Source: Stylophora pistillata
Taxonomy: Eukaryota
Direction of reading: 5' to 3'
Assembly: GCF_002571385.2 (NCBI RefSeq)
Contig: NW_019217838.1
Coordinates: 212,286-276,285, forward strand
DNA length: 64,000 nucleotides
The notes beneath the pieces were generated by a model. It made no database searches, was not told where the DNA came from, and was given only the letters and a program-made list of their open reading frames with translations. Made by a program: the position numbers and the translations under genes. Shown one piece after another: positions 12,601 through 39,677 of this stretch (the stretch's first letter is position 1; every line of letters starts with the position of its first letter).

Positions 12601-13640
12601 TACATATTAATTATAATTTATAATACTCAACAGGAATAATATAAATCAACCCACTTGAGGAACTTCAGGATTCAAAATGGAAGTATATGCTAAGACAGTG
12701 ATGTACAACTCAGGACGTAAAACAATGGGGTTACCAGGAACGGAGAACTGCAAAGAAAGTGAAAGTGAACATTTATCTTTTNNNNNNNNNNNNNNNNNNN
12801 NNNNNNNNNNNNNNNNNNNNNNNNNNNNNGGGTTTGGAAACTAGGCAGACTTTGAATTCAACATGATAAATGCAATATGTGCTCCAAATGTTCCATTTCT
12901 CATGTCAACTTCAAATGCTAATAATATAATAAACCTTAGAGATGTGATATCTGGCACTATAAATAACAAGAGCTCTTATATATAACTACAAATTTTATTA
13001 AGAAATTGACAGTGGTTTGGCCTGGTCTGCACTGTTATCCATTATGATATTCATCATCACAGTGGTCAAAGTGGTAATGGACCCACGAGGGACAGCCAAG
13101 TGAGCCTGCTATAAATTGATGTCAAATGTTGTTGTAGATAACAGTAAAGACCACGCTAAACCACTGTTGATTTATTTTTTGACCACAATATTAACGTAAA
13201 ATAAAACGATTCTTTTAGTACGCGACACATTATGTGACACACTTACACCAGCAGCATTGTCTGTACTCCTATCCACAACGGCAAATTTACCAATAAGATT
13301 GCAACATTACTGCCAATAATGGTAAAAAATAATATTTTCAAGACTCCAACATGCAATATTCATGTACACAGACAAGCCACCTTTTCTTCACTCAGCAAAA
13401 GAACATATAAAGCCTTAAACTCCCAGAAGTGATCAACATGTAACTTCTCCCTAAAATATCCCTACATTTTCCAGCAAACGGGTAATGAGAATACTCAAAC
13501 TTATCAGGTAGAAGTTGATATCTTGATCTTAATTCTCCTTACTAATTCACAAGGAATATGAGTGGAAGCTAGAACGGAGAGTTAACAATCAGATCGGGGG
13601 AGTTATTCAAAGTGTTAAGCTTGCACAAAACTATGAACTA

Positions 13641-13693
<53 letters not shown>

Positions 13694-13891
13694 ACCATTA
13701 ATGGTATATGAGCCATTATATAACATAATCTACAAATATGGTAAACCTACGCGTCAGCTTAAAATTAAAAGGGAGTTAAAAAATTTAACGTTTGGTAAGA
13801 TTTGTCCGATATCTTGGGGGCATTTTTAATAAAACAATTATTCCACTCAGGCTTGTTGGATATAAGATGATTATAGCCAACTCGGCGCTAA

Positions 13892-13922
<31 letters not shown>

Positions 13923-34731: not shown

Positions 34732-34744
34732 TATATTTATTGTA

Positions 34745-37700
34745 TCAGGGTTTGTAGGCTTGGCTGTTATGTATCTTAACATTTGTAGTCAAATATTCGC
34801 GTGAAATTTGTGTTGGAATCACAACACCACTGGATGAAGAGCCATCCAATCTTATGGCTTCTTGAGTTTCGCCAGCATTTACAAAGAATCTGTCACTCCC
34901 TGACAACTTGACTGAGGTTTGTCGCGTTGTCCACGTCTTTTCATCGTGCATCTCGACTTTTGGTGACGAAGAAATGTGTTTTATTTCCACGGGAATGACT
35001 GCGCTACCATTAGCTGGGGTCCCTTCTAATGTTACAGCCTGGCGCACCTCACCGGCGTAAACAAAATTTCTGTCTTTCACTGCTGGCAATCTACTTGTAA
35101 TTGTTTGAGTTGTTAAGTTCTCACTGTTATGTATGACTACTCCAGAAGAAGAAGAAACTTGTGTCACTTCAACGGGAATTACCACCCCGTCGGAGGTCTG
35201 AGGTCTTTCTGACTTCAAAACTTGGCGTGTTTCCCTTGATCGAACGAACCCTGTCTTTTCCGGTGGCAATTCAGTCAAATAATACTTTATCGACTGCTCA
35301 TCTTTGTAATTTCCAGTCCTAGTAGGTGCTTCCTGAATTTGGACGAAGAAGGCGTTGTCAGTGCCACTAACCAACTTATTTGAATCTCTCGGTAACATAG
35401 ATGTTGTCGTTGAATGCATTTTTAGGCCTCCAGAAAAGGATTTCAATGCTCCCCATGACTCCGTTAACGGTATTGGTGCCTGTAATCGCCACTGTTCGTT
35501 TCCTTTGGCTTCAACTTTCCACTCATCCCTTAACTCTTTCTTTTCAAGTATTTTTCCACCCAGTCTATCCTCTCCTTGAAGAAATTCCATTTTATCTGCT
35601 GAAAGCCTGTTTCCTTGCAGAAGTTGTTCTGATTTCACTTCTTTCTGAGTAACTACCTGTGCTACCCACTCTTCAGTTATGAGCTTCTCAACATTGGCCG
35701 ATGGTTTATGTTCTTTGACTTCTGAGGTGAAAACGCTTTCGTTAAAGTCGGGAATGACAAGTCTGTCAGGGCTGGATTTGTCAAGCTTTTTCTCGGGCTC
35801 TGTATCTTGGCCTTGAAGAAACTGCATTTTATCTCCTGAGAGCCTTTTTGCCCGTACAGATGGGTCTGATCTGACTTCTTGAGTAACTACTTGTGTTACC
35901 CACTGTTCACTTTTAAGCTTGTCGACTTTTGGTGATGATTTATGTTCTGTGACGTCTGTGGTGAAAGTGGCTTGATTAAAGTCGGGAATGACAAGTCTGC
36001 CAGGACTAGATTTCTCTAGACTTTTCTCAGGCTGGGTGTGTTGACTTTGAAGAAACTGCATTTTATCTGCTGAGAGCCTTTTTGCCTGCACAGATGGGTC
36101 TGATCTGCCTTTATCCTTAGTAACTACTTGTGTTACCCACTGTTCAGTTTTTAACTTGTCGACTTTTGGTGATGGTTTATGGTCTGTGACGTCTGAGGTG
36201 AAAGTAGCTTGATTAAAGTCGGGAATGACAAGTCTGCCAGGACTAGATTTATCTAGACTTTTCTCAGGCTGGGTATCTTGACTTTGAAGAAACTGCATTT
36301 TATCTGCTGAGAGCCTGTTTGCCTGCAGAAGTTGCTCTGATCTCACCTCTTCTTGAGTAACTACGTGTGTTACCCACTCTTGAGTTTTAAGCTTCTCGAC
36401 TTTGGGGGATGGTTTATCTTCTTTGACTTCTGTGGTCAAAGTGGTTTGATTGAAGACGGGAATGAGAAGTCTCCCAGGGCTAGATTTATCTCGCATCTTT
36501 TCGGGCTGTGTCTCTTGGCCTTGAAGAAACTGCATTTTATCTGCTGAGAGCCTTTTTGCTTTTACAGATGGGTCTGAGCTGACGTCTTCTTGACTAACTA
36601 CTTGTGTAAGCCACTGTTCACTTTTTAGCTTGTCGACTTTTGGTGATGGTTGATGTTCTTTGACGTCTGTGGTGAACGTGGCTTGATTAAAGTCGGGGAT
36701 GACAAGTCTACCAGAGCTAGATTTATCTCGCATCTTTTCGGGCTGTGTCTCTTGTTCTTGAAGAAACTGCATTTTATCTGCTGAGAGCCTTTTTGCCTGT
36801 ACAGATGGGTCAGATCTGACTTCTTCCTGAGTAACTACTTGTGTTAGCCACTGTTCACTTTTTAGCTTGTCGACTTTTGGTGATGGTTTATGGTCTGTGA
36901 CGTCTGTGGTGAAAGTGGCTTGATTAAAGTCGGGAATGACAAGTCTGCCAGGACTAGATTTTTCTAGACTTTTCTCAGGCTGGGTATCTTGACTTTGAAG
37001 AAACTGCATTTTATCTGCTGAGAGCCTGTTTGCCTGCAGAAGTGGCTCTGATCTCACCTCTTCTTGAGTAACTACCTGTGTTACCCACTCTTGAGTTTTA
37101 AGCTTCTCGACTTTGGGCGATGGTTTATGTTCTTTGACTTCTGTGGTGAAAGTGGTATGATTAAAGTAGGGAATGACAAGTCTCCCAGTTGTGGTTTTTT
37201 TTAGACTTGTGACGGGCTGTTTATGTTGGCTTTGAAGAAACTGCATTTTATCTGCTGAGAGCCTTTTTGCTTGCAGAGGTGGTTCTGATTTGACTTCTTC
37301 GAGTGTGATTTCCCGGCTTACCCACCCATCAGGTTTGTCTGTTTGGTCTTTGGTCGATGGTTTGTTTTGATTGACCTGCTTTGTTGAAGTCTGTTGAGTT
37401 AAGTGGGGAATGAGAATTCTGTCGCCGTGAGATTTGGCGTGTGTGATGTTCTGTGTCGTCATGTTTTCTGTATTTCTTGCTGCTAGAGGTCCTTTTTCCC
37501 TTTTGGTTCTGGTTATTGAGTGCTCTCTATAAGCCTTTGACCCAAAATTCTTTTGAGAAGTTGTTGGATTTGAGACTGAGTAAGAGTGTGTTGTTGACTG
37601 CTGAGTTCCTTTTTTTATCACTTCATTGAGTTGCCTTTTTTGTTGGGATGAATTTTTGGCATTGTTTTCTGATATAGATACCATATCCAGTTTGGATAAT

Positions 37701-38481
37701 ATCGTCTTAGGCGTGGGTGTAAATGCCTGTTTCGTTCCGATAGTGCTTTTTATGTGAACGTCATGATCTTGGTCTGTTACCAGGTATTCTGTGTTTGTCT
37801 CTAAGGATACATTGGATATTTCTGCATGTTTTGGTTTGTCGGTGGTAAAGTTTGTTGTTGTTTGCATTTCAGGCTGGTATCTTGTGACATTTTCTAACAC
37901 AGCTATGCCATCACGAACTCTGTATGTATAACTAGTTTTTGAGCTTCGTTTGGTGGTAGCTGGCATATTAGTAGAGTCCAAGTTGGTGAGTTTTCCAAGG
38001 TTGTTGTTGGCTGCAGGAGTTGAATGTCCATTTTTTGCTTGGATATGTTCTTTTAATTCGGGAAGACTTCGATCAATATTAGAATTGATTGTTGTTGTAG
38101 TAATCGGCGCTGCCTCGGTAGCGAGGTGTTTTTTCTCTTCTCCATTTATAACAAATGTTCGAACTATTGTTGTACTGTTTTCGGTATAAGCTGCATTAGC
38201 ATCATCACTGCTTTGAGTTTTGAAGAGTATTTCACTTCCTTGATCTTTAGCAATTTGTGGGCTCTCTGCAACTGCTTCTTCGTAACTCGAAGAAAACGTT
38301 TCAGGATTTAGGAAATTGCCCCCCCTTACTTCAATCGGGTGTTGTGTCGAAGCGCTGGAATACGAAAACACCTTTCTCGAGATAATTTGTGACATGGTGA
38401 GTAGTTTCTTTCTGTTATTTAACCAAGCGGCACCGTCCACTGACTTTGGAGATTTCTCCGTTTTACATGTTCGATTTTTTG
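34745..38481 (-). CDS. Exon G: 3.7-kb terminal exon encoding a T/S/K/Q-rich region with 8 x 79-aa repeats
   Basis: ttttttacgcag acceptor at 38481 (phase 1), ORF 34745..38440 open for 1231 aa, repeats all in frame. Confidence 0.85.
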
Positions 38482-39677
38482 CTGCGTAAAAAATGAAGAA
38501 GAGGGATTGAGTGTGAGCTGGTTCCTAGGGGAAGTTGCGAAATCTCAACCGGGGCCGGGATTTTAAGGAATTGATTCTAGATATATTGTTTAATCTTTCA
38601 TGTTAATCTAATTATCTATCTTGATAGGTTGATTGATTTTCAACTGATACAGGAAACAACTGTGGCCGTAGCACAGTCAAGCCTGTATTAAGCGGCCCAT
38701 ATTTATGGACAACCCTGTATCAAGCGGTCGGTTGTCAAAGTCCCGACATTTTTTAATCCCTGTAATTTTCACCTTTATCACGCTTTCACCTCTATTAAGT
38801 CGAAACGGCCGTTTTGTATCGTCTTCCACCTGTATCGAACGGTTACTTAAAGCCGAACCCCTGAAATGACACTAACAGTTATCTCTCAAGTTAAATTTAT
38901 TCCAATCTTGGACTGTGAGAACAAATATTTCGCACAAACATCAAACAAGTCAATTGCCGCTCACCCTGTATTAGCAGTCAACCTGTATAAAGCGGTCACT
39001 CCGCCATTCCCATTGGATAACCGCTTCATACAGGTTCGACTCTAGTACTCTTAGTCTCTTTCCTGAAGAGCCCTCCTGAAAACTGAGGCATGATAGGTGT
39101 GGGCGTTTTTATAAGATCTCAGCGGGGTAGAAATACCATGAAGGAAAAGTGTAAGAAATTTGGAGCTGACGACCCCTTATCGAATATCCTTTGGTAAAAG
39201 TAAATCATTCTCTCTGACGAGGGGCTAACGCTCGAAAGGTCAGCTTTACAATGAACGATTTATATCATCCACTCAGTTAATAAAATCAAATTATTTAGTT
39301 CTTATTAACGAGCGGGAGGTCTGTATGGGAGAATCTTGACCGAGGTCGTCAGTACAGACCGAACGCAGCGAGGTCTGTACCAGCGACCGAGGTCAAGATT
39401 CTCCCATACAGACCAACCTAGCTCGGTTAATAAGATGTTTATTATATGGCTGTGTCTTAAATGCCAATTTTTTTTTATATTCTTCGTACCTTTTTTTTCT
39501 AGACCGGTCTAGATGGCGCCTAGATGGGAAAATCTAGACCGCTTTCAATATTTATTTCCTCTGCCAATAAGACAGGAAACATCAATCAACTCCTTCAAAC
39601 GCTCTATTAAAACATATTTACTGATTGTACTGCGCTTTTGAGTATTTTTATACAAAAAGTGCAATATAAGTATTAAA

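Follow-up and report, generated by a model that had tools for sequence, protein, structure and literature searches.

Two tyrosine recombinase (YR) systems have the topology that concerns us here, the attC sites of integron cassettes and the DIRS retrotransposons (PMC7192593, PMC5027507). The attC sites are reported to have a common structure rather than a common sequence, with the folded strand chosen by unpaired features and the product resolved by replication, and CTXphi is the only comparable case named beside them in the sections concerned (PMC5027507, PMC4792948, PMC2727003). In DIRS-1, an internal complementary region (ICR) consists of the complement of the 5' end followed by that of the 3' end (L'R'); it is essential, the intermediate is single-stranded, and integration by the YR has been proposed (PMC7192593). 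CryptonA elements are reported to be present in cnidarians and to have abundant non-autonomous derivatives; the passages on animal Cryptons describe no end structure or tested mechanism, and those on other Cryptons propose a circle that is double-stranded, with direct repeats of 4-6 bp (PMC3212892, PMC13465315). The vertebrate Eulor5/6 repeats are also classed as Cryptons (PMC5753468). Here we describe a set of short non-coding elements with long terminal hairpins in a window of 64,000 nucleotides (nt) of the stony coral Stylophora pistillata (RefSeq assembly GCF_002571385.2, contig NW_019217838.1, positions 212,286 to 276,285), and compare their layout with these systems. Positions below are those of the window, and elements are named after the position of their hairpin (E13833 and so on).

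The repeating unit is almost certainly A..A'/B..tail..B', 242-573 nt long, with the hairpin A..A' as its 5' end only, because a box B directly follows every intact hairpin and has its complement B' downstream. Box B measures 10-19 nt and starts right after the hairpin on the strand that carries the tandem G-A mismatches (the G-A strand), and B' lies 87-385 nt further on. A preliminary description of this DNA, made from its letters, had placed hairpins at 13833, 29923, 30497, 34586 and 39301, exactly where we find them, and had taken each hairpin for the whole element; the abutting pair B/B' corrects this. When B was required to start 0-6 nt past the hairpin, with 300 shuffles per element as null, all five intact elements scored on the 3' side of the G-A strand (shuffle counts in Table 1). 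On the 5' side only one of the five did (E30497), its match being the B' of the neighbouring element, and four palindromes that lack the G-A signature gave 0 of 8 control sides (best 22/300). An earlier version of this test had a combined p of 3e-5. The ungapped test fails for the decayed E13085, with 235 of 300 shuffles reaching its score.

The hairpins are united by a tandem G-A apex under a mini-loop. Exact matches to a GA/GA step that encloses a 2-6 bp stem with a loop of 3-4 nt, and that has six or more Watson-Crick pairs outside it, occur at four sites in the window: 13898(-), 30011(+), 30561(+) and 34665(-). In block-wise dinucleotide shuffles (n=200) the mean was 0.03 sites and the highest count 2, and four sites were reached in none of them. 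Other dinucleotides in the same geometry gave 0 sites, the TC matches being the same four sites on the opposite strand. The fifth hairpin has its site at 39361(+), with one A-C mismatch in the inner stem, and in a relaxed scan with 298 candidates the five hairpins rank as the top five. This common apex was the central claim of the preliminary description, which had also read the loops correctly as GCA, GCA, GTA, GATA and TTA; every loop is closed by C-G and four of the five are GNA or GNNA. Its view that the signature sits on one strand likewise stands, with the correction that this is the minus strand for the 13833 and 34586 hairpins.

A second CGAG pair, previously seen in two hairpins, does exist and is in fact general: a second tandem GA lies on the same strand as the apex in all five, and the 34586 hairpin has three steps. 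The 11 intact GA/GA steps all stand between a pyrimidine and a purine (22/22 half-steps), which is the context of sheared G-A pairs; the basal step of 13833 was read directly from the sequence, since the aligner had shifted it. Among the two-by-two loops in predicted folds of the signature strands, 8 of 9 are GA/GA, compared with 2.8% expected. The distance from the apex to the next G-A step is 18-22 nt in four hairpins and 36 nt in E13833, and 28 nt separate the apex of E34586 from its basal step; a helical phasing of the steps was considered, and the 36-nt and 28-nt distances leave no strict rule.

The arms were thought to differ in sequence, and between families they do (alignment scores 13-18), but the 34586 and 39301 hairpins are related (77% over 146 columns, score 66) and therefore form one family, which leaves four families and, in addition, the decayed element at 13085. 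At 13085 there is indeed a palindrome, as noted before, but its apex is damaged, three substitutions from the pattern, and absent from both the exact and the relaxed scan results, so we count it only as a probable decayed member. Self-comparison for palindromes over 100 nt, with arms of at least 40 nt less than 300 nt apart, yielded nine; five carry the signature, one is the decayed 13085 hairpin, and three (7476, 20695, 43281) have none.

At the junction between the two inverted repeats, the internal sequence A'B is complementary to B'A, the sequence formed when the ends are joined. Circular folding under DNA parameters stacks both ends on the junction in four of the six elements, in part in E30497 and not in E13085. 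Around a 5-nt spacer, the junctions show inverted boxes that match at 5, 3, 4, 6 and 6 of 6 positions (5 is reached by 0.7% of random sites); boxes of 5-6 bp are present in three of the five junctions and weaker ones in two, and each arm forms a long duplex once the circle is folded. Two families whose arms are unrelated have 12 letters in common around the left end and 10 around the junction, and the remaining three have a second common version. The boundary reads AAC, paired to GTT at the junction, in two of five; the left spacer pairs fully in these two AAC families and with 1-2 mismatches in the other three. Between E34586 and E39301, 10 arm columns have changed on both sides with the apex GA/GA still unpaired, and all three differences in B are mirrored in B'.

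Flanks are AT-rich, with TT not at both ends. As the preliminary description had already observed, there is no obvious target-site duplication (TSD): the best flanking direct repeats in 6/6 elements are of 3-5 nt and differ in length, which is not above chance, as 15% of 2000 random pairs reach at least 5 nt; the ends are known to within a few bases. The same description held that its idea would fall if all copies aligned as one ordinary family of miniature inverted-repeat transposable elements (MITEs) with terminal inverted repeats (TIRs) and standard TSDs; what we see is four families, no TIR between the ends and no TSD above chance.

Table 1. Parts of the hairpin elements and other features of the window. 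Shuffles are the number, of 300, that reach the B/B' score unless stated otherwise.
Feature	Positions	Strand	Length (nt)	Hairpin A..A' and loop	G-A steps	Spacer and boxes	Shuffles	Remarks
E13833	13641..13948	minus	308	13948-13833; TTA	apex 13898-97 and 13883-82; basal 13934-33 and 13848-47	B 13832-13823; B' 13650-13641	7	
E29923	29923..30495	plus	573	29923-30112; GATA	29989/30043; apex 30011/30023	B 30113-30124; B' 30484-30495	0	
Arm copy in E29923 tail	30420..30448	plus					0/1000	direct copy of arm A positions 22-50; 47 nt before right end
E30497	30494..30735	plus	about 242	30497-30645; GTA	30541/30592; apex 30561/30574	spacer 30644-30648; B 30649-30659; B' about 30723-30735	1	
E34586	34412..34734	minus	323	34734-34588; GCA	three GA/GA steps; apex 34665	spacer 34587-34583; B 34582-34570; B' 34423-34412	2	
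Arm copy in E34586 tail	near 34497-34481	minus						marginal
E39301	39297..39771	plus	475	39301-39434; GCA	39342/39389; apex 39361/39370	spacer 39434-39438; B 39439-39457; B' 39753-39771	0	E34586 family; boxes 19/19 complementary
Arm copy in E39301 tail	39524..39541	plus					4/1000	direct copy of arm A positions 25-42; 16/18 identical
E13085	13000..13332	plus		13000-13176	damaged apex near 13085	gapped B/B' near 13172-13185 and 13320-13332		probable decayed member; marginal arm copy near 13254-13275
RXYLT1 protein gene	18773-20086	minus						uninterrupted reading frame
Class C G protein-coupled receptor (GPCR)	25970-28750	minus						uninterrupted reading frame
Very large A-rich low-complexity frames	34745-38524, 48840-51569, 52124-52840, 60123-61922	minus						no curated Pfam match

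The tail may hold a further part of the unit. A direct copy of arm A (about positions 21-45) is solid in two of six tails (E29923 and E39301), marginal in two (E13085 and E34586) and absent in two. The tail of E39301 also contains a probable later insertion at 39545-39706, which ends in an ATT microsatellite and has the same 5-mer on both sides; with this stretch removed, about 68 nt would separate the end of the arm copy from the right end, similar to the other elements. All six tails have CCAAT-type 5-mers at most 75 nt from the right end, which could be a relic promoter, a weak observation because the patterns were chosen after looking. One pair is stacked on the same strand, E30497 starting within two bases of the right end of E29923 (30484-30500); this is a single case. 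The ratio of observed to expected CpG is 1.14-1.83 in the five intact elements, 0.75 in the window and 0.60 in the decayed E13085, and the higher values are consistent with younger insertions.

How do these elements compare with the systems introduced above? They resemble integron cassettes in having a site that would be split on integration, leaving the hairpin with its partner box at one end and a single box at the opposite end, and in being diverse in sequence, defined by structure, marked on one strand and stacked head to tail. They differ in being eukaryotic, in having tandem G-A steps and a GNA loop in place of extrahelical bases, in lacking the boundary AAC in three of five, and in that the window has no IntI or attI and the elements no cargo gene. 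The elements would thus work like integron cassettes without being attC sites, the shared feature being topology. The preliminary description had proposed non-autonomous mobile elements with an attC-like logic; the non-coding, structure-based character holds and the boundaries were incomplete, and the analogy is closer than was then supposed because the abutting second inverted repeat gives a cassette-like split site. In CTXphi attP, as in the circle proposed here, the folded strand mimics a double-stranded YR site and the recombinase is borrowed in trans; the phage stem, as described, has no strand-marking bases and is used by host XerCD at dif. The A'B junction has the L'R' order of the DIRS-1 ICR, and the coral elements differ from DIRS in having neither reverse transcriptase (RT) nor a pair of inverted terminal repeats (ITRs), the left end and its complement forming a long terminal hairpin instead. 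By description only, the non-autonomous CryptonA elements (Eulor5A/B, Eulor6A-E, Crypton-N1_SSa, CryptonA-N2_SSa, CryptonA-1N1/1N2_OL) are, like the coral ones, short, non-coding and TSD-less in an animal host. The coral elements show the absence of TIR and TSD that characterises CryptonA; as for the 4-6 bp direct repeats of Crypton F/S, their flanks offer 3-5 nt at chance level, with ends uncertain by a few bases.

The apex by itself recurs outside mobile elements. DNA gives GNA mini-hairpins far greater stability than RNA does, and the single-strand origin mini-hairpins GCGNAGC/GCGNNAGC, which are priming signals and not interspersed repeats, share the apex, and the apex only, with the coral hairpins (PMC13037366). 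Plasmid ColE1 has the same CGAG-C-GNA-G-CGAG apex, with one change, at 1331-1343 between the replication region and rop (2/200 shuffles). We take this segment to lie within the primosome assembly region. Its presence there suggests a recurrent design of single-strand DNA hairpin.

On this evidence we lean towards the reading that the elements are non-autonomous and move as folded single-stranded circles with the help of a tyrosine recombinase whose gene lies elsewhere and which is most likely of CryptonA (DUF3504) type. Considered separately, a folded single-strand DNA intermediate is likely, a stand-alone YR as mobiliser is moderately favoured, and CryptonA membership is plausible. In the proposed cycle, one strand would become exposed, for example at a replication fork, and the GNA mini-hairpin would nucleate the folding of A on A'. 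B' would then pair with B, so that both ends meet on the A'B splint as a dumbbell, and closure of the dumbbell into a circle would yield a full core site with both boxes. An exchange of just one pair of strands with an AT-rich target could open the circle at B'/A, and replication would resolve the product, as for integron cassettes and CTXphi; single strand exchange with replicative resolution would account for the observed layout without target duplication. The sheared G-A steps, which read TC/TC on the other strand, would mark the strand to be used in the manner of the extrahelical bases of attC, and the arm copy in the tail would be a putative accessory binding site.

A number of observations weigh against such a cycle. 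There is no mobiliser gene at hand: Pfam domains for YR, HUH, RT, DDE, Gag and DUF3504 occur in 0 of 107 window frames (10 plus 97 of 147 stop-to-stop frames of at least 70 aa, leaving out those that overlap large open reading frames or simple repeats). The evidence base consists of single copies, five or six in one window. G-T and A-C mismatches on the signature strand are balanced (15 versus 16), and folding energies prefer the G-A strand by only 1-4 kcal/mol in four of five hairpins, with the reverse in E29923. Because the B/B' match was used to choose the ends, the circle-folding test lacks independence; the crossover position cannot be placed from the pairing of the left spacer; and the boxes, at 5-6 bp around a 5-nt spacer, fall short of those of YR sites, which canonically have 11-13 bp around a 6-8 bp spacer. 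Arm changes on both sides also arise by homogenisation without selection, though that should erase the G-A steps. Support from the tail copies is limited, since those of E13085 and E34586 score 24, a value that cross-family comparisons reach as well. The proposed cycle leaves the excision of an integrated copy unexplained, and an HUH enzyme gives a simpler account of it. The link with CryptonA rests partly on the hairpin design of Eulor5/6, which we take to be hairpins, with or without a tail, that have AT-rich ends and CGAG..CGAG at the apex; the paper cited for these repeats says no more than that they are Cryptons (PMC5753468). Finally, Kojima and Jurka, in the part of their work that treats the matter, did not find terminal repeats in animal Cryptons (PMC3212892).

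The same folded strand could instead be handled by an HUH (Y1/Y2) nuclease, the A'B splint aligning the ends for peel-and-paste excision of the IS200/IS605, REP-TnpA or Helentron type. HUH enzymes do act on single-stranded DNA and read hairpins (PMC10288648), unpaired GA residues are kept in the stem of one REP family (PMC3733652), the AT-rich flanks and missing target duplication fit, and nick-and-swap at juxtaposed ends would explain excision more simply than a recombinase does. Moreover, in three elements the tail copy stops 47-71 nt short of the right end, close to the 38-60 bp of HINE elements' subterminal inverted repeats (subTIRs) (PMC4067079). As described, Helentron HINE/DINE-1, Replitron and REP/IS200 elements have single-strand intermediates, hairpins, asymmetric ends and usually no TSD, but their ends are built differently, from inverted subTIRs plus a 3' stem-loop, from direct terminal repeats or from 20-40 nt hairpins (PMC4067079, PMC10288648, PMC3733652). 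The coral elements have neither the 12-15 bp inverted subTIRs, 3' palindrome and TT flanks of HINE nor the short direct terminal repeats of Replitrons: their tail copy is direct relative to the 5' copy, and nothing beyond B' resembles a 3' stem-loop. An HUH enzyme would also not need the two-box symmetry of the junction, and we consider this explanation unlikely overall. Derivation from a DIRS-like retrotransposon, whose RNA would be copied into single-stranded cDNA and circularised on A'B as ICR, strikes us as quite improbable. It draws on the ICR, which is complementary to both ends in the order of the coral junction, and on the insertion of DIRS-1 into other copies (PMC7192593), which recalls the stacking of E30497 on the end of E29923; yet remnants of RT, Gag and YR are found in 0/107 frames, there is no long ITR pair, and the description of DIRS consulted here contains no terminal G-A hairpin of 116-190 nt (PMC7192593).

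Two further explanations do without folded single-stranded DNA, and we give each a very small chance. The structure might act as RNA, in a hairpin-tail short interspersed nuclear element (SINE) or a structured non-coding RNA. Stable tandem G-A pairs occur in RNA too, and polarity on one strand would suit a transcript. GNA mini-loops, however, are favoured in DNA (PMC13037366), Rfam has no match for the elements, the RNA polymerase III B box occurs in 0 of 12 element strands, B' is not followed by a poly(A), A-rich or repeat tail, target duplication is missing, and the splint geometry has no role in a SINE. Alternatively, two separate things could lie side by side, TIR MITEs (B..B') inserted beside palindromic repeats and read as double strands by a DDE transposase. 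On its own B..B' resembles a short-TIR MITE, and the window does hold true TIR-like repeats (9189-9326, 54847-55119). Such a coincidence sits badly with the position of the boxes, which are on the same side relative to the G-A strand in 5/5 elements and 0-5 nt from the hairpin, and with tails that carry a copy of their own hairpin arm and track its variants. A and B', the two ends, do not complement one another, each pairing with the internal junction, and there is no TSD of fixed length.

Searches beyond the window brought no relatives. The E13833 apex gave three matches in GTDB, all in GC-rich bacterial coding frames without a long stem, which we dismissed as chance; E29923 and E30497 had no match among plasmids, and E34586 none among GenBank phages. 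The literature searched, including the relevant parts of PMC4455052 and PMC9004415 and with Repbase and Dfam entries outside its scope, describes neither the A..A'/B..B' layout nor a single-strand Crypton model, and four motifs of the window had no match in it. Repbase or Dfam probably list these repeats under some name already; the novelty may lie in the architecture and in the mechanism implied by the layout.

The surrounding window is AT-rich animal DNA. Its RXYLT1 frame has 93% identity to Stylophora pistillata (the best named match), 66% to Montipora and 54% to Nematostella, which marks the host as a stony coral and probably a pocilloporid. Neither this frame, nor the GPCR, nor the large low-complexity frames contain any of the hairpins. 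The large A-rich frames of the minus strand, one of which holds about eight copies of a 79-aa repeat, are probably exons of one large host gene. A 1231-aa frame between E34586 and E39301 (34745-38440, minus) was considered as an autonomous gene and rejected in favour of a host exon; it has no curated Pfam match and no usable Atlas match, is of low complexity with 237-nt repeats, and resembles the other large A-rich frames of its strand. A separate repeat family occurs at 20703-20861, 5699-5834, 30806-30900 and 39214-39284, as single copies and an inverted pair; the copy at 39214 has a core like that of a hammerhead ribozyme (with no Rfam match), and the family is possibly Penelope-related. Inverted-repeat elements without the G-A signature lie at 7476-7695, 43281-43710, 4463-4519, 9189-9326 and 54847-55119, the first three of which were used as controls and lack an abutting repeat. 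Several abundant families of interspersed repeats with no relation to the hairpin elements are found at 2511-2725, 8952-9083, 15979-16189, 21192-21323, 23059-23269, 53037-53168 and 54648-54819.

The wider picture that follows from our preferred reading is an animal integron-like system, in which a Crypton-type YR reads folded single-stranded circles by their shape (sheared G-A steps and GNA mini-hairpins) and not by their sequence, serves several cassette families that are unrelated in sequence, and can stack them head to tail. We put this forward tentatively, as a possibility that is somewhat more doubtful than not. The ends of animal Cryptons, those of the conserved vertebrate relics Eulor5/6 among them, may follow the same design. 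If the layout with its G-A marks does represent animal Crypton ends, it would provide a structural rule by which many short palindromic repeats now called MITEs or unknown could be classified. If true, it would also allow what would be the first single-strand recombination site of attC type in eukaryotes to be assayed at the scale of oligonucleotides.

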